DNA of 55,419 nt, taken from positions 1 through 55,419 of the forward strand of contig CAZBIU010000002.1 in the NCBI GenBank assembly GCA_964491625.1, written 5' to 3'. Each line of letters starts with the position of its first letter. The first letter of the stretch is position 1. Positions 35,328 to 54,732 of this stretch are shown piece by piece. The position numbers were made by a program, and so were the translations under genes. The DNA is from an uncultured Myxococcales bacterium (GTDB taxonomy: Bacteria; Myxococcota_A; Polyangia; Fen-1088). The notes beneath the pieces were generated by a model that worked only from the letters and a program-made list of their open reading frames with translations, searched no databases and was not told the DNA's origin.

Positions 35328-38300
35328 CTAACCCGCCGTCTGGATGTCTTCGTCGGGCAAGAGGGCCGCGATCATCGTCGCGCCCGAGGTCTGCTGTGCG
35401 GTGGTCAGGCTCAACGGATTCTCGTCGGTGATAGCCAGGCCCGTGAGCTTGCCGGCGCCATCGTTGTAAAGGCCAACCAAGGTGTCCCAGTTGCTGGCGA
35501 GGTTGCTCGAAGCATCAGCAACCGCCACCGAGTGAACCGTGGCGTTGCCCGCCAGCGTCTGCGCGTCCCCCGCCACGGCATTGGTGACGTCTACCTGGTA
35601 GTTCAGGTTGTCGATCGTACCTAGCGCGGAGGCGCCTGTGGTCCAATCGGATTCGGAGAGGGATAGCATCGGCGAGTCGTCGGTGAGGTGGAGTTGGGAG
35701 AGAGTGTCTCCCAGGGCGAGCACGTCGCCGAAATTGTTCGACACGTTGTCGGCGCTGTCGCTGATGCTGATCGACGTGACCTCAGGGATATTCTGAAGGT
35801 TGGCAAGATCCGCCATGGCCGCTCCCGTGGCTTCAAGCTGGTAGGACCCGTCGATCTTGGACAGCGTGTCCCCGTTGTTGAGCACTTGTGCCGCCGTGAG
35901 CGAGATGGTTTCGTCCTGGTCCGTAAGCGAGATGGAATTCAGGTTCGTCGCGGACGCGAGCGCGTCGAAATTCGCCGCAATTTCCGTGCTCGAATCGCTG
36001 ACGTCCATCGAGGCGACGTGCGTGTCGCTGGCCAGGGTTGTCGCGTCCTGTGCCGAGACATCACTGAGGGCGACACTGTATTGGCCGTCCTTCACTTGCC
36101 CGAGGATGGCGGCCGAGTCGGCGTAGGTCTGGGCGGTCATTTCCATCGCGACGGTCGGATCTTCCACCACAAGCTGGGTGACTTTCGACTGTCCCGCCAG
36201 ATCGCCAAGGGCCGCCGTCAGCGCACTTGCGCTGTCCAGCACCTGGATAGATGTGACCTCGTCCGCGCTTGCCAGGTCGGACACCTGCGACACGCGAGCG
36301 CCCTGGATGGCGGCGGTAATGTCGGTGCTGAACTTCTGGCGTAAGGCATCGCCATTGTTCCAATCGTCAACCCCGATCTGCAGCGCCGAGGAATCGGTCT
36401 CGGCCACGTCGGTAAGCTTGGCGCCGATCTGCGCGAGCGAGCCCCAGGCGGACGACAAATTCGCACCGGTGTCGGACACGGCGAGGCTTGCGACTTGGGT
36501 GTCGGAGGCAAAGGTGGCTGCCTTGGCTGCCGAGACTTGCGAAAGGGAGGCCAGGTAGCCGCCCTGGATCTTGGCCAGCGCCGCCGCGTCTTGTTCGTAC
36601 TGTGCCCCGGTCAGGCTCAGCATGGTGCCGGGTGCGTCGGTCTGGGTGATGCTAAGGAGCTTCGATCCGAGGGAATTGAGATCCGATAGATTGGTGGCGA
36701 TGCTGTCGGCGTCGCCGGAGACATCGACGGTGGCGATCTTGTGGTTGTTGGTGACCAGGGTCTTCGCGTCGCTCGCCGCGACTCCCGTCACCGCCAGCTT
36801 GTAGCTGCCGCCCTTGATGAGAGACAGAACTGGCTGCGCGTCCGACAGCGCGCTTTCATCCAGTGACAGACTCACGGTCGGCGTCTGGTTGGTGATGCTG
36901 TGGATCTTGCTCCCATTGTCTCCGCCGACCAGAGTTTCGAGCGCCGAGAGGTTGTCCTCGATGGCACTGCCCTCGTCGCTCATGTCGATTTGGGTCACCG
37001 CCGTATCACCGGCAATGGCTTGCGCTTGCCCGACGCTGGCGCCGGTGACCGCGAAGGTCGCGTTCTGGTCGAATTTGCTGACGAGATTGTCGTGGACACC
37101 TGCCTGGTAGTTGTCCGCTGACAGCGAGATGGCGCCGCCGTCGCTCTTGGTGATCGAGGTGAGCTCTGCGCCGAGCGTGCGCAGCGCCGACCACTTGGCC
37201 AAGATATTGCGTCCGGTGTCGGTCACTGCGATTTGCCCCACATGCAAATTGGTGGCATCCGCCACCGCCTTGGCCGCGGATACTCCCGTCAGGTTGGAGG
37301 TGTAGCCGCCCCTGATCTTTGCCAACACGGAGGCGCGCGAATCGAGCTGCGTCTGGGTCAGGTCGAAAGCCGCGCCGACATCGGTCTGCTCGATGCTGGT
37401 AAGTCGGGAACCCAGGTGATAGAGCGCATCGAGCCCCGATTTGATATTGGCGCTGGAATCAGCGACCTGGAACTGGACGATGTGCTTGTTGCTGGCCAAA
37501 GTGGTCGCATCGGCTACGCCAGCGCCCGCAATCGCCACCTTGTAGTTGCCGCCCTTGACCTTGTCGAGCACCGCCTGGGTCGCCGCCATGTCGGCAGCTT
37601 GGAACCGCGACACGTCCATGACCAACGGTGTGCTGGAGTTCGTGACCGTAACGCTCGTCAGCTTGCCCTGCCCGTTGAGAGTCTCCAGGTCGTCCAGATT
37701 GGCTACGAGGTTCGCGCCCGAGTCAGCCACTTCGACGGTGTCCACATGGCTGGCCCCGGCTACCGTCGTCGCGGTTCCGGCACTCACATTGGTCACTGCC
37801 AGCTTGTAGGTGTGCTGTCCGTCATCGACGAACTTGCTAAGCAGGGTATCGCTTGCCGCGAATTGATCCGACGTCAAGCGGATGGCGTTGTTCTGATCGG
37901 TCACTTGCACCGTGGTGAGATTGTCCGCAAGGTCTTGCAGGAAGGACCAGTTGCGAGCCAGGTTCTTTGCCGTATCCTGGACATCGACCGTCACCACTTT
38001 GTGGTCCGACGCAAGCGCCCTGGTCTGCGTTGCCGATGCGTCGATGACGTCGAGCATATCGGAGGTGATGATCTTGCCGAGCACGACCTTGTCCTGCTGG
38101 TATTGTTGCCCGGTCAGGCTCAGTGGGTTCTGCGCGTCGGTCTGGCTGATGCTCTTGATACGCAGGCCCACCCGTTGCAAATCATCCAAGTGGCTGGCGA
38201 TGGCGTCGGTGGTGTCGGTGATGGCAATCGACTTGACCTTGCTGTTGGTCGACAGCCCGGAACTGCCGTCGGGACCCAGCGCATCGCTGACGCTGGCGCC

Positions 38301-38852
38301 GGTGATGGCGAGCGTGTAGCCGTGGTTCTTGATCTTGTCCAGGGCATCCTGATCGGCGGTCAGTTGTCCGACCGTGATGCTGAGATTTCCCTGGGTTCCG
38401 GTCTGCGAGATCTCTTGCAACAGCCCGTTTGTCGCGAGGGTCTCCAGGCTGTCCAAGTGGCTTTGAATCGAGGCCCGCGAATCAGCGACCTTCACCGAGG
38501 TCACGTAGCTTGGCAACGCAACGGAAATACTCGCCTTGGCCGCCGTGATGGCGACCGTTTGTCCCGAGCCCGCTCCCCAGATCGCAAGCGCTGCACCGTC
38601 CTTCTGATACTGGGCGCCCGTCACCGTCATGGCCGTGCTGGTGTCGGTAGTGGAGATCGATGTGATCTTGCCTGCCACCGACTGCAAGGCGTCCAGGTTC
38701 TTGGCGATGTTTTGGACACTATCGGAAATATCGACGGTGGCAGAAGGGTGATGGCGCAACTGGGCCAGAGCGTTCGCCACGGTCAGCGGCCCCGAGCCCG
38801 AGTAGTTGCCATTTGTTCCAGGAGAACCTGTAATGCCGCCTACGTCAGACAT
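35328..38852 (-). CDS. 1174-aa signal-less, Cys-free, acidic Ser/Thr/Ala/Asp-rich tandem-repeat protein, family unknown
   Basis: Start taken at ATG 38850-38852 (MSDVGGITGSPG...). There is no obvious SD, so the start is uncertain. 14 repeats of consensus V.s[IV].V.D[ST]a.n[IL]..N[LWF][DS].L..LG.kLtSI..TD...l.Lt..Q......L.KI.gG.Y.l.vtGvsa..A..la.... Confidence 0.8.
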   Translation of the reverse strand: MSDVGGITGSPGTNGNYSGSGPLTVANALAQLRHHPSATVDISDSVQNIAKNLDALQSVAGKITSISTTDTSTAMTVTGAQYQKDGAALAIWGAGSGQTVAITAAKASISVALPSYVTSVKVADSRASIQSHLDSLETLATNGLLQEISQTGTQGNLSITVGQLTADQDALDKIKNHGYTLAITGASVSDALGPDGSSGLSTNSKVKSIAITDTTDAIASHLDDLQRVGLRIKSISQTDAQNPLSLTGQQYQQDKVVLGKIITSDMLDVIDASATQTRALASDHKVVTVDVQDTAKNLARNWSFLQDLADNLTTVQVTDQNNAIRLTSDQFAASDTLLSKFVDDGQHTYKLAVTNVSAGTATTVAGASHVDTVEVADSGANLVANLDDLETLNGQGKLTSVTVTNSSTPLVMDVSRFQAADMAATQAVLDKVKGGNYKVAIAGAGVADATTLASNKHIVQFQVADSSANIKSGLDALYHLGSRLTSIEQTDVGAAFDLTQTQLDSRASVLAKIRGGYTSNLTGVSAAKAVADATNLHVGQIAVTDTGRNILAKWSALRTLGAELTSITKSDGGAISLSADNYQAGVHDNLVSKFDQNATFAVTGASVGQAQAIAGDTAVTQIDMSDEGSAIEDNLSALETLVGGDNGSKIHSITNQTPTVSLSLDESALSDAQPVLSLIKGGSYKLAVTGVAASDAKTLVTNNHKIATVDVSGDADSIATNLSDLNSLGSKLLSITQTDAPGTMLSLTGAQYEQDAAALAKIQGGYLASLSQVSAAKAATFASDTQVASLAVSDTGANLSSAWGSLAQIGAKLTDVAETDSSALQIGVDDWNNGDALRQKFSTDITAAIQGARVSQVSDLASADEVTSIQVLDSASALTAALGDLAGQSKVTQLVVEDPTVAMEMTAQTYADSAAILGQVKDGQYSVALSDVSAQDATTLASDTHVASMDVSDSSTEIAANFDALASATNLNSISLTDQDETISLTAAQVLNNGDTLSKIDGSYQLEATGAAMADLANLQNIPEVTSISISDSADNVSNNFGDVLALGDTLSQLHLTDDSPMLSLSESDWTTGASALGTIDNLNYQVDVTNAVAGDAQTLAGNATVHSVAVADASSNLASNWDTLVGLYNDGAGKLTGLAITDENPLSLTTAQQTSGATMIAALLPDEDIQTAG
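35331..38744 (-). repeat. 14 tandem diverged coding repeats of ~80 aa (~240 nt) with a three-unit super-period of ~247 aa (~740 nt)
   Basis: Repeat starts at aa 37, 117, 206, 286, 370, 458, 538, 619, 706, 787, 866, 946, 1025 and 1106 (hand count). Units 5/8/11, 6/9/12 and 7/10/13 resemble each other more than their neighbours. Confidence 0.8.
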
Positions 38853-39006
38853 CAAAGGGTACTTCGACACGCAGACGGCCGAAGTTAAGGCCGAATTGGA
38901 CAGACTTGAGAAGAAGCCCCAACCGCCCGCAACGCTTGAGGTTCTTCGGCAGTGCCTCTGCGGATCGTGAATTGCGGACCATCGCGGGTCATGACAACGT
39001 GCACGC

Positions 39007-40614
39007 ATGACCGGTTCGTCTGCAGGCTCTCCCAACAACTGTCCTACCTGTGGTGCGCCGCTCTCCGGCCCGTCCAGCGAGCGTTGCGACTACTGCGGGG
39101 CCAGCCTGCGCTCACCGGCCGCCGATCTCAATCGCAACCTTTCCAGCGCGATGTCAGCGTCACGCAAGGTTTGGCGACGATCGTGGATCTACACCGGCGT
39201 GGTGCTGGGAGCGTCGCTGCTGGTCGGAGTGGTCGGCCAGTTTGGGACCCGCCAAGCGGTTCGGCGCAGCAGCGAAGCGAGCCAGCCGTCCAGTGGAAAC
39301 GGGGCGAGACAGCCGTCGGCGGCGAACCAGAACAAGCCCAAGTCTCACGAGCTGTCTGAGCTACTGGCCACCCTCTCGCCGGCCACGGGCGACCCGAAGG
39401 TTCTGTTTTCGACCACGCCACCTGGCGCCATAGCCCTGCTGGACGCGGCGACCTCCCAGCAGCTTTGGAATGCGACGCCGGCCAGCGAGCGAGTCTCCCC
39501 GGACGCTGTCGTCGTGATTGGCGAACGCATTCTCGTCGTCACCCAGTCGAGCGTAGTCGCCTTGCAGATTCGCGACGGGAGCATCGAATGGCAGGCCTCG
39601 CTGGTGGCCGATTACTCGCAGTTCGGAAATCCTGCCAAGGTTCTGTCCGAGCGATTGCTTGTCCAACTGCGCGACGGAACCACGCAAGCTTTCGACATCA
39701 ACACCGGCAAGACCGTCTGGTCGGTCAAGCAACCCCCACCTTCTACGCAATGGCGTGCCGCCGGCGACGTGCTCGTGGACATCCGGTACAACGGCAAGAA
39801 GAGGAAAAAGCCGCTCGAGGTGTTCGTCAGCGACGTGGCGACGGGGCAGGAGACTCACGTCTTCGCACCACGCTGCTCCACCCACTCGGTCATCCCTGCG
39901 AACGAGCCCAGTCTGTCGGTGCCCGCGCTGCTCAGCGAGGACGGCAGCGACCTCTACCTGTTTTACGGATTCAATCGCTTCTGCATCGATCGCTGGAATC
40001 TGCGATCGGGCAAGCTGGTATGGCAAACCAACCGGAACGACGGGTTCGTCGACTCGTCACCGAGGGAGTTGCGTTTTCTGATGGATGACGAGCGCATCGT
40101 CTACGTCGGCACCGACGGCGTCTACCAGGTTCGTCGGCGCAACGGAGAGGTGACCAAGATCGTCGATCGTGAGCAGAACAAGCTCGTCCCCACCTACCTG
40201 AAGGACAACCTGCTCGTGCTCGCCGCCACGGCTTCCTGGGACAGTTTCGAGTGCAAAAGAGCGAAGACATGTGCGCTCTGGGGCGTGGACCTGGCCAAGC
40301 GTGAGGTGCTTTGGCGGTACACGCTTCCCAAAGTGGGATCCTTCCCGTCGAATTCGGAGAGGTTCGCCGGTGCCTTGTCCGGGGATGCGCTCGCGCTGGT
40401 GGAGGATGGGCAGGCCGGCCAGATCGTTTTCGATCGCATTGACCCGGCGACCGGGGTCAGCAAGCTTCATCGAGAGCCAAAGCCGGCCTCCACCGAGAAG
40501 TATTACTTCGAGGCACCGGAGCTTTCGCTGTCAGGTGGTTTCGTATGGTTCAAAGAGAACGGATTTTCCGCAATCGATCTGGCCTCGGGCTCGATCCGCT
40601 ATCGACTGCGCTGA
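39007..40614 (+). CDS. zinc-ribbon / single-TM / PQQ-like beta-propeller protein
   Basis: 'CPTCGAPLSGPSSERCDYCG' zinc ribbon, TM 'IYTGVVLGASLLVGVVGQF', then repeated '...G...W' blades ('DGSIEWQASL', 'TGKTVWSVKQ', 'SGKLVWQTNR', 'KREVLWRYTL'). Confidence 0.7.
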   Translation: MTGSSAGSPNNCPTCGAPLSGPSSERCDYCGASLRSPAADLNRNLSSAMSASRKVWRRSWIYTGVVLGASLLVGVVGQFGTRQAVRRSSEASQPSSGNGARQPSAANQNKPKSHELSELLATLSPATGDPKVLFSTTPPGAIALLDAATSQQLWNATPASERVSPDAVVVIGERILVVTQSSVVALQIRDGSIEWQASLVADYSQFGNPAKVLSERLLVQLRDGTTQAFDINTGKTVWSVKQPPPSTQWRAAGDVLVDIRYNGKKRKKPLEVFVSDVATGQETHVFAPRCSTHSVIPANEPSLSVPALLSEDGSDLYLFYGFNRFCIDRWNLRSGKLVWQTNRNDGFVDSSPRELRFLMDDERIVYVGTDGVYQVRRRNGEVTKIVDREQNKLVPTYLKDNLLVLAATASWDSFECKRAKTCALWGVDLAKREVLWRYTLPKVGSFPSNSERFAGALSGDALALVEDGQAGQIVFDRIDPATGVSKLHREPKPASTEKYYFEAPELSLSGGFVWFKENGFSAIDLASGSIRYRLR

Positions 40615-41245: not shown

Positions 41246-41773
41246 CTAGTCTTCGAAGCGTAGCCGAGCTGTTCCCGCCACCGGAAGCATGGGCACGCCG
41301 GCACGCTCAAGCGCTTTCGCTCCGTCCGAGAAGCGGTGACTCCTCACGGGCGCAGTCGCCCCAGTCTGGGGGTTGACGGCAGTGACGCCAGTGCGAGTTG
41401 CGGCGATTATCCGCCTGGAGAGCTTCCTCCATATGCCAAGGACGGCCTTGTCAGAAGTGCGGGCGGTAATTCCGGATTCCTGGAGACCAGCGTCGACCCT
41501 TCGGCCGATGTCGAGCAGGAGTGCGCTCGGGTTTCGATCCAAGAAGCCCATCATGCCATTGCCCCGCAGCACCGGCCGCTTGATTGTGAACGCAAGACGC
41601 TCCACATCGGTTTGATGTAGCACCAATACAAGAGCCTGGTTCTCCACGGGGATGACTTTGAACGGCTCGTACTTGATGGCAGAGACAAAGATCCGAGCGT
41701 CCTGGACGAAGTCCTGCACCAGCAAAAGGAGCTCGTCGGGAGTAGCGTGAAATTGAATTGAGATGTCGGACAT
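41246..41773 (-). CDS. candidate immunity protein for the Rhs C-terminal toxin (cytoplasmic, family unknown)
   Basis: 175-aa ORF starting 21 nt after the Rhs stop on the same strand. No signal peptide. Visibly AT-richer than its surroundings. Confidence 0.6.
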   Translation of the reverse strand: MSDISIQFHATPDELLLLVQDFVQDARIFVSAIKYEPFKVIPVENQALVLVLHQTDVERLAFTIKRPVLRGNGMMGFLDRNPSALLLDIGRRVDAGLQESGITARTSDKAVLGIWRKLSRRIIAATRTGVTAVNPQTGATAPVRSHRFSDGAKALERAGVPMLPVAGTARLRFED

Positions 41774-41794
41774 TTCTTTTCGAGCACCTGATTC

Positions 41795-44700
41795 TTAGTT
41801 GTTGTAAGCAACGAAGTCCGTTGGGAGTCCACCCGGACCATTCAGGTCCGCCAAAGCAGTCCGTTCGCGTGTTACTGGCTGCCCACTGGCGTCAACCTTA
41901 CCAACGTTTCGCCCACGGAGCTCGCCTTTCTTTGTCCGGTACAGGATGTCCGGTCGGCGGCCATCCTTCTGTCCGCCAGGCGTGGGGATGAGCTTTTCCT
42001 TCGCACGCCCGCCGCCAGCGAGAATGGTGTTTCCCTTTCTCTGGAGCTTGTTCGCCTCTGCGCGAATCTTGGCGTTGTGGGGTGCCTTGGGATCCGTCTT
42101 CGGCCCACGCTTTTTCCCCTTCCCACCCTTCTTTGCGTCCTCCTTGTTCTTGCCCTTGGCGTCCTTCTTGGCCTTCTTTGCCGCCTTCTTCGCGGCCTTC
42201 GCTCGCGGACACGCCTTCAGGCCATCCAGATCCACCGCCCGCAGTGGATTCTCGGTATAGGCGTATAGGTTGAGACTGCCCTCGGTGCCTGCGGGATCGG
42301 ATTGCAGATAGCGGCCGAGCTCGGGGCTGTAGGTTCGGAAGCGGTTGTCGTGTAGGCCCGTTTCGGAGTCGTAGTAGTGCCCTGGCCAGCGTAGTGGCTG
42401 GTGGAAATCTGCGCCCACGTCGATCTGGGCCGTGCCGTACGGGTCTATACGCGCGCGCCAGACAGCACGGCCGGCGTCGTCCAGCACCAGCTCGGGACAG
42501 CCGAGGTGGTCGGTATGGATGTGATAGCGCTTGCCGGTGGCCGGGTCGGCATCAACGCTCTCATACTCCAGGAACAGGATTGGTACCAGGGCCGCGGCGT
42601 CCGGGTAAACGTACACGCGCAGCCGGCCGTCGGGGAAGATCTCTGCGGCCAGGCGATCGGTATCCCAGTAGTACTGCCAGGTCTGGCCGCTGATGGTCTT
42701 CCGGGTCCGACGACCCAGACCGTCGTGAACCGCCCGGTAGCTGATGCCCGGCCCATCGATCGCGTTTAGTAGGTCGCGCGAATCGTAGGTGTACTTGGTG
42801 GTGCCCGCGCGACCTCGGCGTTGCGAGAGGTTGTCACGCTCGTCGTAGCTGAACTGGTCGTCGTTGGCCTCCAGCAGACGGTTGCCTGTCTGCATGCGTG
42901 CGGAGAGACCTGGGGCCTTGAGCAAGTTGCCCGCCCGGTCGTAGGCGTATTCATGGGCCGTGCCGTCCCACAAGCGCACCTTCGACAGCCGGTGTACTTC
43001 GTCGTGCTCGAAGATCGTGGTTCCGCGGAGGCTGTCATCGCGTTGGACCAGATCGCCTTCACCCGAGTACGCGAAACGCCGAGCCCACCCACCAGTCTTC
43101 CTTAGGCCGGGGCCTTCTGCGGCCTTGAGCAGACAACGTCCGCTGGGGTCGTAGTGGCTCAGCTCTTCGACGTCGTTGGAGCAAGCCCGTTCGACCAGGC
43201 CCGGCCCGCGCAGGTGCAGGCGCTGGGTCTGACCTCCCGGGTCCAGTACCACGGTCGTGGTGTCGTCGGTCTGGATGTACCTGGTGACGAATCTCCCGAG
43301 GACGCTGGTTTCGGCAAGGCGATCCGCCTCGAAGCGGTGGCGCGCGCCTTTGCCATCGCGTTCGTCCGCCGTGCGCTGGCCCTGGTCATCGTAGGCAAAG
43401 GTGACGGTGCCAGCCTGATTCTTGGCCTGGGCCAGCCGGCCGTTGGGTAGGTATTTGAAGTCCTCCACATCGCCAGAGCCCAAGAGGCGCTGTGCGATCT
43501 CATTGCCCTTGGTGATGGCCAGCTTGAGCAGCAAGCGCCCCTGGCCGTCGCGCTTTTCGGTAAGGTTATCGGCGGCGTCATAGACGTATCTCTCACGCAC
43601 CTTGCCGTGGCGACGTACTTCGACCAGGCGGTCCTTGAGGTCGTAGCTGTACTCGCTGCGGGTGCCGCCCGGATCGACGATGGCCGAGACCTCTTCGCTC
43701 TTGGTGTATGCGTATTCGGTAACGCTGCCTTGGCCGTCGATCTCGCGCAGTAGGAAGTTCCAAGACCCGTTTTCGTAGCGCGTGGTGCGGCCGTCGAAGT
43801 CGGTGTACCAGCGCTCGAAGCCGTTCTGGTCGTAGCCCCAACGCCGGCTCTTGCCGTCTTTGCGTTCCTCGCGAAGTAGTAGCCCCTGGACGTCCCTGAC
43901 CTTGGTGGGATCGGGCAGCGCGGCGCTCGGGTTGGGTCCCCACAGGTCGACCACCCAATGGGGCAACCAACGTTCCAGGGGCACGTCCGCGGGAACAACC
44001 TCGATGGGACCAGGCCATTCGCCGTGCTCCCATTCCACCGGGGTATCCGGCAGCTCGTGCGACAGCGGGTGCGGGGGAGGATTCTCTTGTTCTTCTAGCA
44101 GCTCCGGGTAGCCGAACGGGTCCAGCTTGGCGTAGGGCAGGTCGCCTTCGTCGTAGAGGATCTCGCTCTCGTTGCCGTTGGGATCCACCTCCTTCACAAC
44201 CCGCCCGTCCTCGTCCTTCAGATAGGCAGTCACCCCGCCGCATGGATCGATGATCTGGACCAGCTCTTTCTGGTCGTCGTAGTAGTAGCTGGTGACCGCG
44301 CCATCGCCGCGGGTGACCACAGTCAGGTGCTCTTCCACCTTGAATTCGAGGCGAAATTCCTCTACGCCGTCCTCGCCCCAGGTGTGGATGCAACGCCCGT
44401 CCTTGTCGTATTCGAAGAAGAAGCTGTAGCCGCGTCGGTCGATGGTTTGAATGACACGGTTGCTGTCGTCGTAGACATAGCGAAGGACGCCGCCGTAGGC
44501 GTTCTCGATCTCGATCAGGCGTCCCTCGCGGTCGTAACCGTAGCGAACAAGACGGTGCTTGTTGGTCGAGCCGGCCTCCAGCAGCACAGCGCCAGCGAGG
44601 TGCGTGCCGGCGTACTCGAACACCACGCGCTTGCTCACGTCGACTTGGATTGCGGCCAGCAGCCCCTTGTCGTACTGCAAGCGTAGGGGCGGGCGCGGGT

Positions 44701-45148
44701 CGTCCTCCTCATAGAAGATCCTGGTCGGTCGGGCGACCGGCTCCCGGTCGAAGCGGAACTCCAGGCTCGGGGCATCGCCCGGGGGATGGATTCGGAAGGT
44801 GGTGGAGCTGACCCGTTCCAGCTCGTGCCCACTGCGCATGCAGCAGTCGCGGTCGGCGGCAGGGAACGGGAACTGGATGTTGTCGGCCTCGGGGCCGGCG
44901 AAGGTCAGGCCGTCCAGGTCGAAGCGGAGCTCGAAGTCGAGCGAGAACCAGAACCCATGCCCGACGCCACGATCGATCTGGTTGCGATTGCTATCGTAGT
45001 AGCGAGCGCCGGCAAGGAAGATATGCGCTCCCTGAAGCTGGAAATCCGTCACGACCGACGTCTGCGCACCGGTCACGACGTCCACGGGATCGCCCACCAG
45101 GTGGAGGCTGTCCTTCCATGGCAGGCTGCCGCAACACTTGGTGGTCAT
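41795..45148 (-). CDS. Rhs-family T6SS effector: DUF6531-like N-terminus, YD-repeat shell, core with DLDGL cleavage motif, 140-aa unknown C-terminal toxin
   Basis: Start ATG 45146-45148 (MTTKCCGSLPW..VGDPVDVVTGAQ). YD repeats ('YGYDREGRLIEIENAYGGVLRYVYDDSNRV'). Core end 'RFRTYSPELGRYLQSDPAGTEGSLNLYAYTENPLRAVDLDGL'. The longer ORF N-terminus is shadow. Confidence 0.9.
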   Translation of the reverse strand: MTTKCCGSLPWKDSLHLVGDPVDVVTGAQTSVVTDFQLQGAHIFLAGARYYDSNRNQIDRGVGHGFWFSLDFELRFDLDGLTFAGPEADNIQFPFPAADRDCCMRSGHELERVSSTTFRIHPPGDAPSLEFRFDREPVARPTRIFYEEDDPRPPLRLQYDKGLLAAIQVDVSKRVVFEYAGTHLAGAVLLEAGSTNKHRLVRYGYDREGRLIEIENAYGGVLRYVYDDSNRVIQTIDRRGYSFFFEYDKDGRCIHTWGEDGVEEFRLEFKVEEHLTVVTRGDGAVTSYYYDDQKELVQIIDPCGGVTAYLKDEDGRVVKEVDPNGNESEILYDEGDLPYAKLDPFGYPELLEEQENPPPHPLSHELPDTPVEWEHGEWPGPIEVVPADVPLERWLPHWVVDLWGPNPSAALPDPTKVRDVQGLLLREERKDGKSRRWGYDQNGFERWYTDFDGRTTRYENGSWNFLLREIDGQGSVTEYAYTKSEEVSAIVDPGGTRSEYSYDLKDRLVEVRRHGKVRERYVYDAADNLTEKRDGQGRLLLKLAITKGNEIAQRLLGSGDVEDFKYLPNGRLAQAKNQAGTVTFAYDDQGQRTADERDGKGARHRFEADRLAETSVLGRFVTRYIQTDDTTTVVLDPGGQTQRLHLRGPGLVERACSNDVEELSHYDPSGRCLLKAAEGPGLRKTGGWARRFAYSGEGDLVQRDDSLRGTTIFEHDEVHRLSKVRLWDGTAHEYAYDRAGNLLKAPGLSARMQTGNRLLEANDDQFSYDERDNLSQRRGRAGTTKYTYDSRDLLNAIDGPGISYRAVHDGLGRRTRKTISGQTWQYYWDTDRLAAEIFPDGRLRVYVYPDAAALVPILFLEYESVDADPATGKRYHIHTDHLGCPELVLDDAGRAVWRARIDPYGTAQIDVGADFHQPLRWPGHYYDSETGLHDNRFRTYSPELGRYLQSDPAGTEGSLNLYAYTENPLRAVDLDGLKACPRAKAAKKAAKKAKKDAKGKNKEDAKKGGKGKKRGPKTDPKAPHNAKIRAEANKLQRKGNTILAGGGRAKEKLIPTPGGQKDGRRPDILYRTKKGELRGRNVGKVDASGQPVTRERTALADLNGPGGLPTDFVAYNN

Positions 45149-46149
45149 CACGACTCTCCCGCCGGGGCCGGAGGGGGGGGCGGACACCCACAGTCCCCGC
45201 CGACTCCCTTCTTGTTGCCGCCACCGCCCTTGCCGCTCAACTTTTTCGCCAGCCCCTTCAGCTTGTTCTTCAGCCACTTCGCGATGGCGTCGGTGGCGGG
45301 CACGGGCACGCCGGCGACCAGCACGGTGGGCGCGCCCATCATCACGAAGCCGGGCAGCTTGGGCGGAATCGCCGGGTCCGAGCCCATCATGGCACTGAGC
45401 GCGGCGGCGATGGCGTCGGCCACGGTTTGCGCCGCGGTCATGGACGCTGCCAGCACCTGGGCCGCTGCCATGGCCGCGGCGCCTTCCGTCTGGCTCGCGG
45501 CGGTGTCGGCCGCGCCCTCGAGCCCCTCGACCAGATCGATGCCGGCGCTGAGCAGCGCCAGCGCGCCCATCGGGCTGCGCGGCTTGCCCGGCGAGCACAC
45601 CGTGCACATGTCGGTCATGCGCGCGGCTCGGGCACCGCCGATGAAGACCTTCGACGATCCCAAGAACACCGTAAAATACGGCGCAAGGCCACCGCAGGTA
45701 GGCGCCATGCCCAAATCGCCCACGCGCGCTGCGGGCATGCCGCCCACCAGAACCCGCACGCAGGTTCCCAGGGTGATGGCGCCCATGCTGGGCAGGGGCA
45801 CGGGCGGCGCGGGGGGAATCAAGCTCGGCGGATGGGCGTGTGCGTGGGGCGCGCCGACGTAGAGCGAACCCAACTGCGCGGCCGGGAACGACGGCAAGAT
45901 GGCCGCAATGGCGTTGGTGGCCACCGCGACGCCGGTCTCGACCAGGTTGGTGTACATCTTCTCGGGCAGGCCCTTCACGGCGTCGATGGCGCCCGATACT
46001 TTTTTCACCGCTCCAATCGGATCCTTCAGGATCTCTTGCGGATGGGTTACCACATCGGCGGCAGCGCTGACCGAATCGGTGGTCGACTTGATGGTCGATT
46101 CCACCGTCTGGCCGAGAGCCGTGAGTCCAGAGTCGACGTAGCCACTCAT
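45148..46149 (-). CDS. PAAR-domain protein with helical N-terminal region and Ala-rich hydrophobic insertion
   Basis: 'HAHAHPP...VLVGGMPAARVGD', 'VFIGGARAARMTD' and, ~85 aa later, 'VLVAGVPVPATD'. The TGA overlaps the Rhs ATG by 1 nt (TGATG). Confidence 0.8.
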   Translation of the reverse strand: MSGYVDSGLTALGQTVESTIKSTTDSVSAAADVVTHPQEILKDPIGAVKKVSGAIDAVKGLPEKMYTNLVETGVAVATNAIAAILPSFPAAQLGSLYVGAPHAHAHPPSLIPPAPPVPLPSMGAITLGTCVRVLVGGMPAARVGDLGMAPTCGGLAPYFTVFLGSSKVFIGGARAARMTDMCTVCSPGKPRSPMGALALLSAGIDLVEGLEGAADTAASQTEGAAAMAAAQVLAASMTAAQTVADAIAAALSAMMGSDPAIPPKLPGFVMMGAPTVLVAGVPVPATDAIAKWLKNKLKGLAKKLSGKGGGGNKKGVGGDCGCPPPPPAPAGES

Positions 46150-47399
46150 GCGGGATAGGGCCTTATGCCTTGCTGTCGCAGCCAGGCGATTTCGGGTTCA
46201 ATCTCACGGCGGCGCGCCGTCAGGTTCGCTTCTTTGTAAAGGCCGTGGATGCGTTCGAGGCAGTCGAGCAGGTGCTCCTTCGACTGGGCATCGCGGGCCA
46301 GGGCCACGCCGGCGTTCCAGCTTTCCCAGGCCGCCTTGGTGTCACCGAGCTTGTGCTTGCAAAACCCCATCTGTTCCAGGCAGCGCAACTGCAGCTCGTC
46401 GTTGCCGACCACCTTGGCCAGCATGGAAAGTCCCTCGTAGTAACCGAAGGCCGACACGAAGTCGCCGGCCAGGCGATGCAAGTTGGCCAGGTTGCCGGTG
46501 ACGTTGATGAGCGACGCGGGATCCTGGGCCTGCACCGCGGGCACCAGGGCCAGCTCGTAGTGGCGCTTCGCCTCTGGCTTGTTCCCCATCCGATCGAACA
46601 CCTCGCCGAGGCCGTTGAGGCTTAAGGCATGCAGGGGCTTGGGTCCGAGTGCCCCGTGGTAGCGAGCGAGCAAGGCGTATTTCTTCGACGCCTCGGGGAA
46701 GCGGCGATACGCCAGATCCATACCGGCCAGCAGCAGCACCGCCTGCATCCGCTGCGGTAAGGGCAGAGCGGCGTCGTTCATTTCGTCTTCCAGCGAGGCC
46801 TGCACCGCGTTTGGTCCCATATCCGGGGCGTAGACCTCGATGGCCCGCTTGGCCTGGGCGGCGGCGGCATAGAGCGGCGCCGGCTGGGCTTCCTCGCGCA
46901 CGAGGATGCGCATGTGGTGACACCAGGGTTGCGGCATTTCGTGCGCGGCCAGCGCGAGAATCAGTTGCGCGAAGTCTTGCGGGTCGCTGATCTTGCTGGG
47001 CAGAAAGCCCGCCACCAGATGAGTGACTTCCAGATCGTCGATAAGAGATCGCGCGAACACCAGCAAAGCCCGAAGGCGATCCACGGGGGGCAGCCTCGGG
47101 TTGCTGATCTCTGCCGGCAGCTCGCCGGGAACCTCGGAGCGGGCCTTGCGCAGCTCGGGCACCAGTACGACGTAGCGCACGCGGAAGGACTCGACCACGG
47201 CCTGGGCGTATTTGCTTGCGCTTTCGAAGGGCTCTTGGAACAGCCAGAAGGCGTCCGCTGACTCTTGCTCGATGCCGTCTAGGGTGGAAACCAGCGGCAG
47301 GAGCTCGGCCGGCCCGGCGCGCACCACCAGCAAGAGCGCCCGGCGCTGCGCCAAGAATGCCTCCAGGCGGAGGCGCATGTCCGCGAAGAGCTTGCGCAT
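46146..47399 (-). CDS. 417-aa protein with unknown N-terminal half and C-terminal TPR half; candidate T6SS adaptor/chaperone
   Basis: Start ATG 47397-47399, 2 nt after the vgrG stop. ATGA overlap with the PAAR gene. TPR-like 'EASKKYALLARYHG...GLGEVFDRMGNKPEAKRHYELAL...GNLANLHRLAGDFVSAFGYYEG'. Confidence 0.75.
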   Translation of the reverse strand: MRKLFADMRLRLEAFLAQRRALLLVVRAGPAELLPLVSTLDGIEQESADAFWLFQEPFESASKYAQAVVESFRVRYVVLVPELRKARSEVPGELPAEISNPRLPPVDRLRALLVFARSLIDDLEVTHLVAGFLPSKISDPQDFAQLILALAAHEMPQPWCHHMRILVREEAQPAPLYAAAAQAKRAIEVYAPDMGPNAVQASLEDEMNDAALPLPQRMQAVLLLAGMDLAYRRFPEASKKYALLARYHGALGPKPLHALSLNGLGEVFDRMGNKPEAKRHYELALVPAVQAQDPASLINVTGNLANLHRLAGDFVSAFGYYEGLSMLAKVVGNDELQLRCLEQMGFCKHKLGDTKAAWESWNAGVALARDAQSKEHLLDCLERIHGLYKEANLTARRREIEPEIAWLRQQGIRPYPA

Positions 47400-47401: not shown

Positions 47402-49753
47402 CTAGCCGATTTTGATGAGCGCCCCGCTGATCTCGTGCATGCCCACCGATGCCGAGGTGACCTTCACGCCGTTGACGGTTGTTCCGGACGGCTCGAAGGC
47501 GGCGTTGTTGTTGGCATTGCCTATCTTGACCTTCACACCCGTGATCTCGATGGTGCCGTCGCTCTTCATCGAGATCGAAGCCGAGCCGCACTTGATGGCC
47601 ACCTCGGAATTGGCGGTGACGGTGGCGGAGCTGCCCGACAGGTTGACCTCGCAGCCACCGTTGTTCACCACGATGTCTTTACCTTTCATAAAGAGGGTGT
47701 TGCCCCCTTGGGTCACCTTGAACTGGGTGTCCGCGGTGGTGTTGTACTCGCCGTGAACCGTGACGGTCTTGTCCGACCCCACCACCTCCAGCGTGTCGCC
47801 TTTCTCGACGGTTTCGGTGCGGCCGGCGTGGTACTTACCGGTGTGCGCGCCGGTGATCTCGTCGAGATTGGTGCCGGTCACCTTCATCTCGCGCTCGGCC
47901 TTGTAGGTCTGGGTTTCTTTCTTGGTGACGGTGGTGCTCTGGGTTCCCGTCACGCTGACCGAGTGATTGCCACCCACGCTGACGCTGCGGTCGGCGCCCA
48001 CCGACGTCGACTGGTTGTGCTTGACCGTCGTCGACATGTCCTTTTCGGCCTGGATGTGCAGCTCTTCCTTGCCCTTCAAGTCCTCGAACCGGATCTCGTT
48101 GAAGTTCTGGTCGGTGCCACCCATGCTGCTGCGGCTCTTGATTCCGCTTTGGGTCTTGTTCTTGGGCAGCGTGTAGGGCGGCATGTTGTCGGTGTTGTAG
48201 ACCCGGCCGGTGATGATAGGTCGGTCGGGATCGCCGTCGAGGAACTCGACGATGACCTCTTGCCCGACGCGCGGGATGTGGATCGCTCCCCACTGCTGGC
48301 CCGCCCAGACTTGTGCTACGCGCACCCAGCAGGAGGCCTTCTGGTGGCGGCGGTGCGACCTGTCCCAGTCGAGCTTCACCTTCACGCGCCCGAGCTTGTC
48401 AGTGTAGATCTCGTCCTTGTCCTTACTGGGTGGCTTTGCGCTCCCGCTTCCGCCCTCCTGCTGATCGCCCTCGCCGTCGTCGTCGTCCTCGTCACCTTCC
48501 CCGACCACGACCGCGGTCTGCGGCCCTTCGATTCTCGGCTTGAAGGCCGTTCGCCGCGGGCGGAATTGCAGCTCGGAATCGAGCAGGTTGTACCGCGCGG
48601 TGAAGGCATCGCCGGCCCCTACGGTGTCGCCGCTTTCGTGCTCGTTGATGGAGATGGAGTACGTCGCCTGGGTGATAAGGTATTTCTTGTCCAGGTCGGC
48701 GTCGCTCCAGAACGGATTGTAGTGCTCGTCAGTGGCTCTGGTCAGCTTCACAAGGTCACCGACGCCAAGACCCAGCGTATTGCCCTCCACCTCGATCACC
48801 GTGTTGGCGGCTTGCTCGGTTTGCATCCGAACCATGGCATCTTGCGATGCCTGCTCTTCCTCGGTCAGACCCCCGGGATAGTCATACGCTTCGAATTTCG
48901 ATCCCGGCTGCTCCTCGCCGCTGACCTGCCATTCGATCTGCGCTTGCTTGGCTCGATTCGTGGTGTAGTCGTAACCCCGCAGAACGCTGAACTTGGAAGG
49001 GTACAGCGCACCGGAAGCGCGCAGCCCCCAGAAGTGCTCACTGACGGTGTTTCGGTCGTCCCGGTTGACCCGGCACAAGACCGAATCGTAGCCCGGAACC
49101 GTGTCGTGGTTGGCCATAAGATTGGCGAGCACCAAGGTGTGTTTGTCGGCTTCGTGGGTGAAGAAGTAGTAGATGCCTTCGTCCTCCAGGAGGCGCTGCA
49201 CGAAGTTGAGGTCCGTCTCTCGATACTGCACGCAGTACCGCCGATCAACGTCCACGTTGGAGTCCGCCGTGATGTCCTTGATCAAGGTGACTTCGCGTTG
49301 CTTGAGGACCTTCTTGACGATGGTGAGGGTGTCCTGGGAAGGCGGGCCGCTTTCGGGGTCAAGCCCGGCATTGCTCGCGTCGTTGAAGATCCGGCAGTTC
49401 TGCGCGTACGCCAGTCGGGCGAGGGTGGGGACCAAGACCACGGCGTACCGGGTGTGGCGCAAGGTCGGGCCCACCTTGGCAAAGTAGGCGACGATGCCGT
49501 TGAAGTACCGGTACTGGTGCTGTGGATCGACGTCGGCGCCGCGGTCGATGCGCACTGTGAGCGGCTTGCCCAAGAGATCGCCGACCGGAATCGCGGCGTT
49601 TTCGGACAGAATGGTCAGGTCGTACCGATAGGGAGCTCCCAGCGCCTCGCGACCCTGAAAGGTTTCGAGGAGCAGGTCGGTCTTAGGCTCGAGGTCTGAG
49701 CTGCTGCCGCTCTTCGGTCCGAGGATGGTGATGTTGCTGGCATTGGCTGGCAT
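47402..49753 (-). CDS. vgrG: type VI secretion spike protein VgrG (TssI)
   Basis: Start ATG 49751-49753 (MPANASN...). 'ETFQGREALGAPYRYDLTILS', 'YCVQYRETDLNFVQRLLEDEGIYYFF', 'NFNEIRFEDLKGKEELHIQAEKD' and a gp5-like beta-helix tail. Confidence 0.92.
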   Translation of the reverse strand: MPANASNITILGPKSGSSSDLEPKTDLLLETFQGREALGAPYRYDLTILSENAAIPVGDLLGKPLTVRIDRGADVDPQHQYRYFNGIVAYFAKVGPTLRHTRYAVVLVPTLARLAYAQNCRIFNDASNAGLDPESGPPSQDTLTIVKKVLKQREVTLIKDITADSNVDVDRRYCVQYRETDLNFVQRLLEDEGIYYFFTHEADKHTLVLANLMANHDTVPGYDSVLCRVNRDDRNTVSEHFWGLRASGALYPSKFSVLRGYDYTTNRAKQAQIEWQVSGEEQPGSKFEAYDYPGGLTEEEQASQDAMVRMQTEQAANTVIEVEGNTLGLGVGDLVKLTRATDEHYNPFWSDADLDKKYLITQATYSISINEHESGDTVGAGDAFTARYNLLDSELQFRPRRTAFKPRIEGPQTAVVVGEGDEDDDDGEGDQQEGGSGSAKPPSKDKDEIYTDKLGRVKVKLDWDRSHRRHQKASCWVRVAQVWAGQQWGAIHIPRVGQEVIVEFLDGDPDRPIITGRVYNTDNMPPYTLPKNKTQSGIKSRSSMGGTDQNFNEIRFEDLKGKEELHIQAEKDMSTTVKHNQSTSVGADRSVSVGGNHSVSVTGTQSTTVTKKETQTYKAEREMKVTGTNLDEITGAHTGKYHAGRTETVEKGDTLEVVGSDKTVTVHGEYNTTADTQFKVTQGGNTLFMKGKDIVVNNGGCEVNLSGSSATVTANSEVAIKCGSASISMKSDGTIEITGVKVKIGNANNNAAFEPSGTTVNGVKVTSASVGMHEISGALIKIG

Positions 49754-49855
49754 CGCAGGTAGTCCTCGGGGCGAAGGCCCCAGTGGGTACTTCGGGAGTG
49801 GATCCTTTGATACAAGGCGCCAGTCTAGCACCACAAAAAGCGCGGTCACGCACGT

Positions 49856-49873
49856 CCTGACGTGCACGTCAGG
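49856..49873. promoter_or_regulatory. perfect 18-bp palindrome CCTGACGTGCACGTCAGG in the divergent vgrG / lipoprotein promoter region
   Basis: Read directly from the sequence. It lies 103 nt upstream of the vgrG ATG and 88 nt upstream of the lipoprotein ATG. Confidence 0.45.
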
Positions 49874-49960
49874 TCCACACGTCATTGTCACTGCAGCCTT
49901 CGCTCGGTACACTGTGACCGCGTTGACGCGGCGACGCTTACGCACCGAAAGGGGAATCGA

Positions 49961-50692: not shown

Positions 50693-50714
50693 GTCGAGCC
50701 TAAGGTCGAGCCTA
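50691..50714. repeat. tandem 12-mer AGGTCGAGCCTA x2 filling the gap between two convergent stop codons
   Basis: 50691-50702 is identical to 50703-50714. The plus-gene TAG (50690-50692) and the minus-gene TAG (50712-50714) are both embedded in it. Confidence 0.8.
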
Positions 50715-51818
50715 CCCGCCCAACCAACGAACCAGCGTGAGCGACGGTGCGTAGGTCCAGCCTCCGTCGACCACGGCTTCGACCAACGGGTTTCGCATCT
50801 CGGTCGCGGAGAAGCGGTAGCGGTACGCCTCGGCCAGTTGCCACTTGCCGTCGCGGAATCCGAGCCCCACTGCCGCGTCGCTTTCGTACGCAAAGAAAGT
50901 GATTCCACGCCAGTACGAAAGGTTGGCGAAGAAGCCTGTGAGCCCGGCTCGCCAAGATAGGGAGCGGGATGACTCGATCACCGAGACTCGCGTCCGGTCC
51001 GGGTCAAGCCGCAGCGTCAGCCGCTGTGAAAAACGGATCCGTCCGGCCCCCTGTAGCTGCAGCCAGCGCGCATCGGCGTACACCCACTCGGCTTGGAAGA
51101 CGCCCGGGCGGATCTCCTCAAGGCGCCAGGGCAGGTCGAGCTGGTTGACTTGCAGGAGTCGTGACTGTAGCTCGTCGGCGGATACCGGGACCGCGTCCGG
51201 ATCAGGTTCAATGCGTCCGGCCCACGACGCACCTCGGAGCATGAAGAAGGCGATGGCCAGCATGTAGATACCGATGCCGATCGCAACGCTTCCAAGGTGC
51301 CGGTCGAACAATTCGAACAGCGGGTCGATGTGTGGGTTCTTGGTCACAACCGCAAGGTGTGCCAGCCGGCGATCGACCGCTTCACGATCCGCCGCCTCCA
51401 CACCGATTGCGACGCGGTCGATACGCAGCCAGGCCACGGCCCTGCCGCTTGCGGAGTTGAAGAAGCGGGTTATCGAAACCTTGGCGTTTGTCTCACTGAG
51501 TGACCGGGTGGGGGGCGCGCGCCAGATGCCTTCGATGGCCGCCTTCGCCGCCGCGCTCGACGAACGAACCAGCACGGTTACTGTCGAACCGTCGTCGAAG
51601 CGCTGCACCGACGAGCCTCCGCGTGGGAGGAGCTCGGGGTGGACGGTGTACGGCGCGGGCCCGACAGCGAAGTCCAGACCCACCAGGGCGAAGGGCAAAA
51701 GAAACAAGCCGAATGTGATGCTGAAATAGATTGCGACACGGGACAGGCGTGGCCCCAAGCTCCGGGCGCTGCGCGTGGCAAGATCGTGTCCGCCGGGGCC
51801 GAGGTTTATCGCAGACAT
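50712..51818 (-). CDS. two-TM membrane protein, family unknown (last gene of vgrG island 2)
   Basis: TMs 'VAIYFSITFGLFLLPFALVGL' and 'VAIGIGIYMLAIAFFML' flank a ~130-aa loop. ~170-aa C-terminal domain. Starts 27 nt after the upstream stop. Confidence 0.6.
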   Translation of the reverse strand: MSAINLGPGGHDLATRSARSLGPRLSRVAIYFSITFGLFLLPFALVGLDFAVGPAPYTVHPELLPRGGSSVQRFDDGSTVTVLVRSSSAAAKAAIEGIWRAPPTRSLSETNAKVSITRFFNSASGRAVAWLRIDRVAIGVEAADREAVDRRLAHLAVVTKNPHIDPLFELFDRHLGSVAIGIGIYMLAIAFFMLRGASWAGRIEPDPDAVPVSADELQSRLLQVNQLDLPWRLEEIRPGVFQAEWVYADARWLQLQGAGRIRFSQRLTLRLDPDRTRVSVIESSRSLSWRAGLTGFFANLSYWRGITFFAYESDAAVGLGFRDGKWQLAEAYRYRFSATEMRNPLVEAVVDGGWTYAPSLTLVRWLGG

Positions 51819-51845
51819 TGCAGGCCTGCCGGGTTGCAGAATAGG

Positions 51846-52388
51846 TCAGGCCTTCGGCGATTGAGCTGGGTCATCGGTTTGCGCCGGCTCTGCATCGGCG
51901 TTCAAGTCAATGTTCGTGTAGATGGCGGCCCAAGCCATGAACCAAGCGACAGACACAATGAAGGCGGGGATCAGCCAAGTCACGACGATGAGGATGGGCT
52001 CGCGAGGTAGAATGGCCATGATAAGTAGGCCCATACCGATACACCAGCAAGACATTATGCTGGGCCAAAGCCAGAACGTCAGCCAGTCGCCCCTGCGAGC
52101 GGCCCTTCGAAGCGTGTCGATGTTGGCGGTCAGCACAGCCTTGACGCCGATAATCGGCCCCACTGACTGCATATCGCGGCGAACGTAGGGCTCCGTCGTG
52201 GCACCGTAATCGAACATGTCCCGGGTCTCCTGCTCGCTCATGCGTTCGATCTTGCCCTTCACGTGCTTGAAGAGGACTACAAAGAGGCACACACCCAGCA
52301 GCATGAGAACTGCTCCCGCAACCGCAAGGCACACGGTCGCTGTCCAATCGATGCCGAGCCAGTGAAACCAGACTGAGCTATGGGACAT
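51846..52388 (-). CDS. small polytopic (about 4 TM) membrane protein, family unknown
   Basis: Start at MSHSSVWFHW. TMs 'ATVCLAVAGAVLMLLGVCLFVVLF', 'WLWPSIMSCWCIGMGLLIMAIL' and 'ILIVVTWLIPAFIVSVAWFMAWAAIY'. Confidence 0.6.
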   Translation of the reverse strand: MSHSSVWFHWLGIDWTATVCLAVAGAVLMLLGVCLFVVLFKHVKGKIERMSEQETRDMFDYGATTEPYVRRDMQSVGPIIGVKAVLTANIDTLRRAARRGDWLTFWLWPSIMSCWCIGMGLLIMAILPREPILIVVTWLIPAFIVSVAWFMAWAAIYTNIDLNADAEPAQTDDPAQSPKA

Positions 52389-52421
52389 CGTTGTCCCTCC
52401 GAGGTCCAATACCCACTGCCA

Positions 52422-53489: not shown

Positions 53490-53505
53490 CAGTGCTGTGT
53501 CTCTT

Positions 53506-54708: not shown

Positions 54709-54732
54709 GGGTCTTCAAGCTCGCCGCGGCTA

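Follow-up and report, generated by a model that had tools for sequence, protein, structure and literature searches.

The ten Tox-REase clades (Tox-REase-1 to -10) are small C-terminal cassettes borne by Rhs, HINT and other carrier proteins, each followed by a dedicated immunity gene; they are predicted to share a restriction endonuclease (REase)-like alpha-beta-beta-beta-alpha-beta core in which a conserved Asp opens strand beta2, and all of them retain a D-[EQ]xK signature (PMC3482391). PoNe (PMC6688995) and TseV, a VRR-Nuc toxin (PMC9635880), are proven DNases of PD-(D/E)xK-type fold with a canonical motif, are delivered through type VI secretion systems (T6SS) and are encoded next to their immunity genes. 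An Rhs cocoon, in association with VgrG and PAAR proteins, is described for two T6SS effectors of solved structure, RhsA of P. protegens (PMC8765631) and Rhs1/Tre23 of P. laumondii (PMC8636562). Here we analyse an rhs effector gene, and the open reading frame (ORF) behind it, in a stretch of 55,419 nucleotides (nt) from an uncultured Myxococcales bacterium (contig CAZBIU010000002.1 of assembly GCA_964491625.1, positions 1 to 55,419), referred to below as the window. The last 105 amino acids (aa) of the Rhs protein belong to a widespread polymorphic-toxin family that is without a name in any source, and the 175-aa product of the next gene (ORF175) is its putative cognate immunity protein. We favour, with a probability of roughly 0.55, the reading that the toxin is cargo of a T6SS Rhs effector with an REase-like fold and a rearranged, metal-dependent nuclease site, that DNA is its likeliest substrate and that ORF175 provides immunity.

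We compared the locus with these systems. With the Tox-REase clades it shares the small C-terminal cassette, the range of carriers, the following immunity gene and the predicted core with its Asp at the start of beta2; it differs in having N-V-G in place of D-[EQ]xK. The published Tox-REase motif sets (for example GxxxE/IxD/ExK/Q and FDG/EAK; PMC3482391) were tried, and none fits the pattern KRGPK...PHN...E...K..RRPD...N.G...RE...D of the present domain; the Pfam models Tox-REase-2, -3, -5, -7 and -9 do not match it even at E<=10. VRR-NUC proteins, the type to which TseV belongs, are found among the structural neighbours of the toxin. However, there is no sequence-profile similarity to PoNe or TseV and the canonical motif of these two DNases is absent here, and we regard them as functional analogues that are unrelated in sequence. 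RhsA and Rhs1 have in common with our protein the cocoon architecture, the association with VgrG and PAAR, an N-terminal DPV...TG cleavage signature and a C-terminal pair of DPxG motifs with a spacing of 22 residues. In contrast to both, PAAR is encoded here by a separate upstream gene and is not fused, there is no evident Eag chaperone or transmembrane-helix region, DLDGL takes the place of DPxGL as the second motif, and the toxin domain is unrelated. The rhs gene, the segments of its product and the gene behind it are laid out as follows.

41795 to 45148, minus strand: rhs effector gene, 1117 aa, ATG at 45148, TAA stop at 41795-41797
45065 to 45091, minus strand: N-terminal Rhs autocleavage signature DPVDVVTGA (aa 20-28), of the D|PV..V.TGE type, inside DUF6531
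42218 to 42298, minus strand: C-terminal aspartyl autoprotease signature, DPAGT (aa 951-955)...NPLRAVDLDGL (DLDGL = aa 973-977)
42113 to 42217, minus strand: K/A-rich low-complexity linker KACPRAKAAKKAAKKAKKDAKGKNKEDAKKGGKGK, 35 aa (Rhs aa 978-1012), lineage-specific
41798 to 42112, minus strand: conserved toxin domain, 105 aa (Rhs aa 1013-1117), predicted alpha-beta-beta-beta-alpha-beta (restriction-endonuclease-like) fold
41246 to 41773, minus strand: putative cognate immunity gene (ORF175), 175 aa, 21 nt downstream of the toxin stop

The toxin family and its partner gene

The initial annotation had described the C-terminus of this Rhs protein as a toxin without classification, and the curated libraries bear this out by giving no assignment. 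The domain has no match in Pfam, NCBIfam, PHROGs or PADLOC, 45 diverse relatives run against Pfam with a cut-off of E<=10 gave nothing but noise (DUF4124, IHABP4_N), and tblastn of the domain against plasmid and phage collections found no match. Sequence features, family size, linkage of toxin and partner gene, gene order and predicted fold were all computed. A first, word-indexed search for relatives returned 14 fragments; a profile search run exhaustively over 1.84 billion representatives, taken from clusters at 50 % identity, retrieved 768 clusters at E<=1e-3 and 111 clusters at E<=1e-30. The domain is carried by 34 species genomes from Myxococcota, Planctomycetota, Verrucomicrobiota, Acidobacteriota, Fibrobacterota, Hydrogenedentota and Alpha-, Beta- and Gammaproteobacteria. 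Carriers among the Myxococcota include Sorangium, Archangium and Nannocystaceae besides others, Terriglobia are also present, and the proteobacterial carriers comprise Methylomonas, Shewanella, Glaciecola, Pseudomonas, Paraburkholderia and Acidocella. A further search located the domain in Burkholderia, Paenibacillus, Tyzzerella and Streptomyces as well, and the spread of the family amounts to at least eight phyla. Members are annotated at source solely as 'hypothetical protein' or 'RHS repeat-associated core domain-containing protein'.

A conserved (A/K)KRGPK motif marks the start of the domain, which extends to the very C-terminal residue of its carrier in 143 of 173 sequences. The N-terminal parts that carry it are diverse and consist of RHS repeats, pretoxin-HINT (PT-HINT, with a VHN junction), Ig-repeat proteins or very long proteins of more than 2000 aa. 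One and the same C-terminal domain is thus found on varied carriers with a conserved gene directly downstream, the arrangement by which polymorphic toxins are recognized. Keyword searches of the literature yielded no Rhs or T6SS toxin of REase-like type that could be linked to this one, a description under another name being possible.

Directly behind the toxin, within ~70 nt of its stop codon, 28 of the 34 genomes encode a homolog of ORF175, with E-values from 1e-27 to 1e-79. The exceptions are one genome in which the contig ends (L017), one with a degenerate toxin (L014) and four in which a different ORF is present (L030-L033). This strict linkage across phyla and carriers argues for a toxin-immunity pair, and the ORF at 41246, which had been proposed as the partner beforehand, is therefore best regarded as the predicted cognate immunity protein. 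All 39 database homologs of ORF175 are named 'hypothetical', and the protein has no match in Pfam (including the Imm families), NCBIfam, PHROG or PADLOC. Its AlphaFold2 model is of high confidence, with a predicted local distance difference test score (pLDDT) of 95.1, and a Foldseek search of the PDB with this model gave matches of random level only, with template modelling (TM) scores of 0.35 or lower. A search of the window for orphan copies returned one toxin and one immunity gene and no extras.

The carrier protein has both class features of Rhs/YD-repeat polymorphic toxins, namely shell repeats and an Rhs-associated core. Against Pfam, it matches RHS_repeat (2.2e-32, over 10 stretches) and also DUF6531, RHS and TEN_YD-shell; against NCBIfam, it matches TIGR03696 Rhs_assc_core (5.9e-22) and TIGR01643 (6e-28). 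The same locus is present in four independent metagenome assemblies, with 0-1 mismatch over the 3.5 kb that span the Rhs 3' end and the immunity gene, which excludes an assembly artefact. In these assemblies the gene callers give the same pair of 1117 aa and 175 aa with the same rhs start.

Signatures of autocleavage are present at both ends of the Rhs shell. The N-terminal DPVDVVTGA matches the motif described for Rhs1 (PMC8636562), and cleavage may occur at this position. Near the C-terminus, 22 residues separate D951 from D973; the proven catalytic aspartates D1324/D1346 of RhsA from P. protegens (PMC8765631) are spaced identically, and so are the two DPLGL motifs that Rhs1 contains (PMC8636562). 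Leu replaces the usual Pro in the second motif (DLDGL at 42218-42232), and a cleavage site is predicted after L977. The piece behind DLDGL is exactly 140 aa long (42217-41798) and consists of the K/A-rich tract of 35-40 aa followed by the ~105-aa domain. We confirmed on the minus strand the Rhs C-terminus with its lysine tract as initially observed, including the position of DLDGL, the length of 140 aa and every peptide quoted for it.

The four genomes with a different downstream ORF, L030-L033, are those of Pseudomonas palmensis, Pseudomonas sp. dw_612, P. weihenstephanensis and Paraburkholderia antibiotica. Their toxins form a subclade that stands directly after DPLGL; strand beta3 contains VYGNVGK, and the C-terminal tail is longer and includes Cys. 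The ORF behind them encodes 172-194 aa with the consensus ...GGEDE.AIGAT...GKNWHLFLGRGV... and has no match in Pfam; it was considered as a diverged immunity homolog, but hhalign gave a probability of 0.3 % and homology is unsupported. In Sorangium sp. So ce513 (L014, 5764-6426) the toxin copy is degenerate: PHN has changed to PRN, several conserved positions are substituted, the frame runs on beyond the usual end and no immunity homolog is found downstream. The copy probably represents an orphan cassette in decay, preceded by what is left of a HINT domain. At two loci of Polyangiaceae/Polyangium (L023, 696-1779; L034, 230-1386) the toxin is followed by two tandem, diverged copies of the immunity gene.

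Predicted fold and arrangement of the conserved residues

The AlphaFold2 model of the toxin was built for a 106-aa segment, whose numbering is converted to Rhs numbering by adding 1011. The best model has a pLDDT of 90.4 and a predicted TM score of 0.80, and the five models range from 88.7 to 90.4 in pLDDT. Helices are located at 12-26 and 82-92 and strands at 30-34, 57-60, 66-72 and 99-103, which corresponds to an alpha-beta-beta-beta-alpha-beta core topology with an insertion between beta1 and beta2. Foldseek against the PDB returned PD-(D/E)xK nucleases as ~38 of the top 50 neighbours by our count. These include bunyaviral cap-snatching endonucleases, Cas4/ACE1, VRR-NUC and PspGI (TM 0.54) and, further, NucS/EndoMS, McrC, TnsA, AdnAB and FAN1. 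Among viral models the top neighbours were phage endonucleases, VRR-NUC and entries named 'PD-(D/E)XK nuclease', with probabilities up to 1.00, E-values from 3.6e-3 upward and TM scores of 0.5-0.6.

The model suggests that the toxin domain probably adopts a restriction-endonuclease-like fold of the PD-(D/E)xK superfamily. The initial annotation had put forward a PD-(D/E)xK nuclease tentatively and had named Foldseek and profile comparisons as the check; the idea finds support at the level of the fold, from the model and from neighbours that are mostly such nucleases with weak scores, and the profile comparison gave no match. We therefore file the domain as 'REase-like fold, most likely nuclease-like', short of a proven PD-(D/E)xK member, and consider the family as a whole most likely to be nucleases on the strength of the model.

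Conservation was measured over 173 diverged sequences. Near-invariant residues are G1015, P1016, H1024, N1025, G1045, G1046, E1051, T1056, G1059, K1061, R1064, R1065, P1066, D1067, G1075, N1081, G1083, G1089, P1091, R1094, E1095, A1098, D1101, L1102 and Y1115, and the polar invariants are K1013, K1017, H1024, N1025, E1051, T1056, K1061, R1064, R1065, D1067, N1081, R1094, E1095, D1101 and Y1115. The window copy retains all of the invariant residues. D1067, the Asp of RRPD, stands at the start of beta2, which is the classical 'PD' position, and N1081-V-G1083 on beta3 stand where (D/E)xK would be expected. D1067 and N1081 lie 14 residues apart across the beta2-beta3 hairpin, and 14 residues is the usual spacing from D to (D/E) in the PD-(D/E)xK superfamily.

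These data allow four details of the earlier sequence reading to be judged. RRPD had been taken as a core motif and is indeed invariant, and it had rightly been noted that no canonical (D/E)xK follows it, the position reading N-V-G. The Lys of 'NVGKV' had also been counted to the core; this does not hold, as the residue after N-V-G is K in 88, R in 68 and L in 10 of the 173 sequences. A second acidic residue had not seemed evident, yet conserved ones exist: 'TRERT' and 'AKEKL' each contain an invariant Glu (E1095 and E1051, respectively).

The second acid or the lysine of the active site is relocated to the helix after beta3 in the Cfr10I/NgoMIV/PspGI group and in influenza PA-N, and cap-snatching endonucleases use a His of the first helix to bind metal. 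In our reading, the toxin resembles these enzymes in the pair R1094-E1095 on alpha2 and in the His on alpha1, a likeness drawn from the roles of the residues and not from coordinates; PspGI and cap-snatching enzymes are also among its best structural neighbours. The invariant E1095 and E1051, together with the cations K1061, R1064, R1065 and R1094, therefore lead us to propose a rearranged metal-dependent nuclease site, and a relocated active site of this kind is possible.

What follows on the cleavage of the Rhs protein, on nuclease activity and its substrate, on the roles of single residues and on how immunity works is inferred from the above. The 140-aa C-terminus would be the cargo of a T6SS Rhs effector. 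The Rhs shell keeps both autoprotease aspartates (D951 and D973), and by homology the piece after L977 would be cut off and kept unfolded inside the Rhs cocoon until delivery. Its functional part would be the last ~105 aa, a minimal REase-like core that may act as a divalent-metal-dependent nuclease in the cytoplasm of the target cell. DNA would be the most likely substrate, because most REase-fold toxins are DNases. In the putative site, D1067 would stand at the start of beta2 while N1081 and G1083 would occupy the usual (D/E) and K positions of beta3; the missing carboxylate would be supplied by E1095, at the start of helix alpha2, and/or by E1051, the missing cation by K1061, R1064, R1065 or R1094, and H1024 and N1025 on helix alpha1 could serve as further ligands. 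The 175-aa protein presumably blocks the toxin through binding.

Several observations weigh against such a nuclease. The defining (D/E)xK motif is absent, and the residue that follows N-V-G is not invariant. The structural matches are weak: the best E-value in the PDB is 0.08 and none reaches 1e-3, TM scores lie between 0.3 and 0.6, and identity in the structural alignments is 11-18 %. No PDDEXK-clan Pfam family was matched by the 45 members at E<=10, and searches of the PDB with the single sequence and with a profile returned no nuclease. The toxin model is based on an alignment of 15 sequences, and its first 10 residues, with the invariant KRGPK, are poorly modelled (pLDDT 55). The residue roles are read from the order of the secondary structure elements and the hairpin register, and not from coordinates. 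Finally, the immunity protein of the window is basic (isoelectric point, pI, 10.1) and so is the toxin (pI 10.7), which is unusual for the inhibitor of a basic nuclease; across the family the pI varies widely.

Polymorphic toxins, those of Rhs type included, rank among the main sources of new antibacterial enzymes, and naming this toxin family and its immunity family would make thousands of effector loci annotatable. What the catalogue gains is a compact (~105 aa) toxin of predicted nuclease fold whose predicted catalytic constellation is unusual, together with an immunity protein that lacks any structural relative. The toxin-immunity family itself is new; REase-fold cassettes on Rhs carriers are known, so no new principle is involved. 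An experimental look seems worthwhile, with little surprise in store for the specialist.

Substrate, lysine-rich tract and remote relatives

RNA (tRNA, rRNA or mRNA) is a serious alternative substrate for a toxin of the same fold and delivery, if on balance an unlikely one. Cleavage would then proceed through a His-assisted, Mn2+-type site as in the cap-snatching endonucleases, or in the manner of the Burkholderia tRNase CdiA-CT. PD-(D/E)xK toxins that act as tRNases are known (CdiA-CT Bp1026b). The top PDB neighbour by E-value is the L endonuclease of severe fever with thrombocytopenia syndrome virus (SFTSV), an RNA-cleaving PD-(D/E)xK enzyme; endonucleases of Toscana virus and other phenuiviruses recur among the PDB neighbours, and an emaravirus polymerase fragment is found among the viral models. 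Moreover, the invariant H1024 stands at the start of helix alpha1 and is accompanied by E1051 and D1067, an H...E...PD order like the one in influenza PA-N and in bunyaviral endonucleases. However, all of these scores are weak, and the DNA enzymes PspGI, VRR-NUC, NucS and phage endonucleases are equal or better by TM score. Most characterised polymorphic toxins of REase fold are, in addition, DNases (PMC3482391; PoNe, PMC6688995; TseV, PMC9635880), and DNA remains the substrate that we favour.

A more far-reaching version, which we put forward tentatively and consider unlikely, is that the domain represents a new REase-like branch in which (D/E)xK has been lost (N-x-G) and catalysis comes from the His/Asn of alpha1, the Glu of the beta1-beta2 insertion and the Arg-Glu of alpha2, with a metal requirement or a substrate that differs from those of known REase toxins. 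If this were true, the new branch might for example be a His-assisted, Mn2+-dependent endonuclease of RNA or single-stranded DNA, similar to the cap-snatching enzymes, and it would be neutralised by an immunity protein without a solved fold relative.

The lysine-rich tract between DLDGL and the toxin domain raises a different question. It had been introduced as a stretch of ~45 aa, about half of them Lys, resembling histone H1. The tract is real: the first 40 aa after DLDGL contain 17 K and 9 A and the first 45 aa contain 18 K, compared with 3.1 % Lys in the Rhs core, and the binomial probability of at least 17 K in 40 is 8.7e-16. 'About half' slightly overstates a content of 40-43 %, and the extent has to be revised, since the conserved domain already begins at KRGPK (42112) and leaves a variable linker of ~35 aa. 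The likeness to histone H1 turns out to be one of composition: no Linker_histone or other histone, nucleoid-protein or DNA-binding family of Pfam or NCBIfam matches the tract, and the library matches that were obtained reflect low complexity only (TolA, E 0.049; IHABP4_N, E 0.97). We also considered an AT-hook, which needs a G-R-P core; the invariant K-R-G-P-K motif contains R-G-P and is merely reminiscent of it.

Could the tract still be a functional, H1-like nucleic-acid-binding module that is integral to the toxin and, for example, tethers it to target DNA? The A/K-rich tails of H1, of Hc1 and of the HupB C-terminus bind DNA, the composition of the tract is strongly non-random, and its sequence is identical across the four independent assemblies. 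K/A/Q-rich tracts occur at the same position in two relatives, P0057 and P0050, which together with the window have the Lys-richest upstream stretches (33 %, 25 % and 35 %, respectively). Among the 159 family members with enough upstream sequence, however, the 40 aa that precede the domain have a median Lys content of 5 %; at least 15 % is reached in 21 and at least 25 % in only 3. In the Rhs proteins of Pseudomonas and Paraburkholderia the domain follows DPLGL without any linker ('...WVDPLGL' running directly into 'AKRGPKT...'), and the toxin therefore appears to work without the tract. A 12-nt unit repeated in tandem (2.5 copies) suggests that the tract arose by slippage, and a spacer within the Rhs cocoon or an aid in membrane passage is equally conceivable. 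In view of this, an integral H1-like module seems decidedly unlikely, and the K/A-rich stretch is a variable, probably disordered linker and not a defining module of the toxin, with a possible role in DNA affinity, cocoon packing or membrane passage.

It is very unlikely that the REase-like scaffold lacks phosphodiesterase activity and acts by tight binding of nucleic acid or of a protein (e.g. RNA polymerase) or by some other chemistry: the missing canonical (D/E)xK, the very basic window domain (pI 10.7) and a borderline profile match to the C-terminal part of PAP8/pTAC6 would fit, but an invariant polar set (H, N, E, K, R, R, D, N, R, E, D) over hundreds of sequences typifies enzymes, the PAP8 match was not reproduced with a 15-sequence profile, PAP8 lies outside the top 50 structural neighbours, and we know of no non-catalytic toxins of REase fold.

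The PAP8/pTAC6 match was obtained with the 45-sequence toxin profile against the plant protein in the PDB (8qma chain K; E 0.0044, 19.7 bits). Residues 264-321 of PAP8 align with residues 40-92 of the toxin domain, bringing PGG.K..R..D.L...VG...RE into register, and by this profile PAP8 is a possible remote homolog. PAP8/pTAC6 belongs to the plastid RNA polymerase, where it sits at the secondary channel as a non-catalytic subunit (PMC11561172). In a more remote variant of the new branch considered above, such a kinship would hint at a bacterial-toxin origin of this subunit.

Operon, delivery and other genes of the window

Upstream of rhs, three further genes of the operon are present on the same strand.

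47402 to 49945, minus strand: VgrG spike protein (Phage_GPD 1.5e-61, Phage_base_V, Gp5_trimer_C), counted from the first possible start codon, so that the true start may be farther downstream
46146 to 47399, minus strand: TPR-repeat protein, ~417 aa (TPR_12 1.8e-10), likely ATG 2 nt after the vgrG stop, the start being read from the sequence
45148 to 46149, minus strand: PAAR-domain protein, 333 aa (PF05488 PAAR_motif 1.8e-11), ATG overlapping the TPR stop (ATGA)

The gene order vgrG-TPR-PAAR-rhs-ORF175 is kept on one strand, with overlapping stop and start codons among the upstream genes and rhs; the start codon of rhs (ATG, 45148) has 1 nt in common with the TGA that ends the PAAR gene. This vgrG-TPR-PAAR-rhs-immunity operon is typical of T6SS effector islands and points to type VI secretion, and genetic linkage to both VgrG and PAAR is the feature by which T6SS cargo effectors are recognized. 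The TPR protein is a possible adaptor or chaperone. Among the window ORFs that were scanned, a part of those on this metagenome contig, VgrG and PAAR modules were found and no T6SS core components. The G+C content is 0.55-0.60 over 41400-42200, which takes in the toxin domain as well as the 5' part of the immunity gene, compared with 0.64-0.66 in the Rhs core. Such a fall is usual for exchangeable Rhs tips, and it is consistent with horizontal exchange of the cassette. The C-terminal tail of the PAAR protein (45148-45280, minus strand) is a basic, Gly/Lys-rich stretch of low complexity followed by a Pro run (KWLKNKLKGLAKKLSGKGGGGNKKGVGGDCGCPPPPPAPAGES); it directly precedes the overlapping Rhs start, and basic low-complexity tracts thus recur in the operon.

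A second T6SS spike/effector module is located upstream at 50712-55302 on the minus strand. It contains a Gp5_C-repeat ORF (54733-55302, minus), probably the C-terminal end of another VgrG that extends beyond the window, and a 400-aa PAAR-domain protein (53506-54708, minus). Two ORFs without a Pfam match (51846-52409 and 50712-51818, minus) and a further ORF (52422-53588) follow, and the ORFs of 50712-53588 may be another effector and immunity set. Elsewhere, a 1477-aa protein (22764-27197, minus strand) combines an N-terminal SIR2-like domain (PF13289, 4.8e-6) with many TPR repeats, an architecture that is reminiscent of NAD-consuming defence or signalling proteins and is unrelated to the toxin. 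A very long ORF without a Pfam match at E<=1e-3 is found at 35328-39038 on the minus strand (1236 aa as an ORF, 1174 aa by the assembly gene callers) and lies just downstream of a PQQ-like beta-propeller gene (39007-40614, plus strand).

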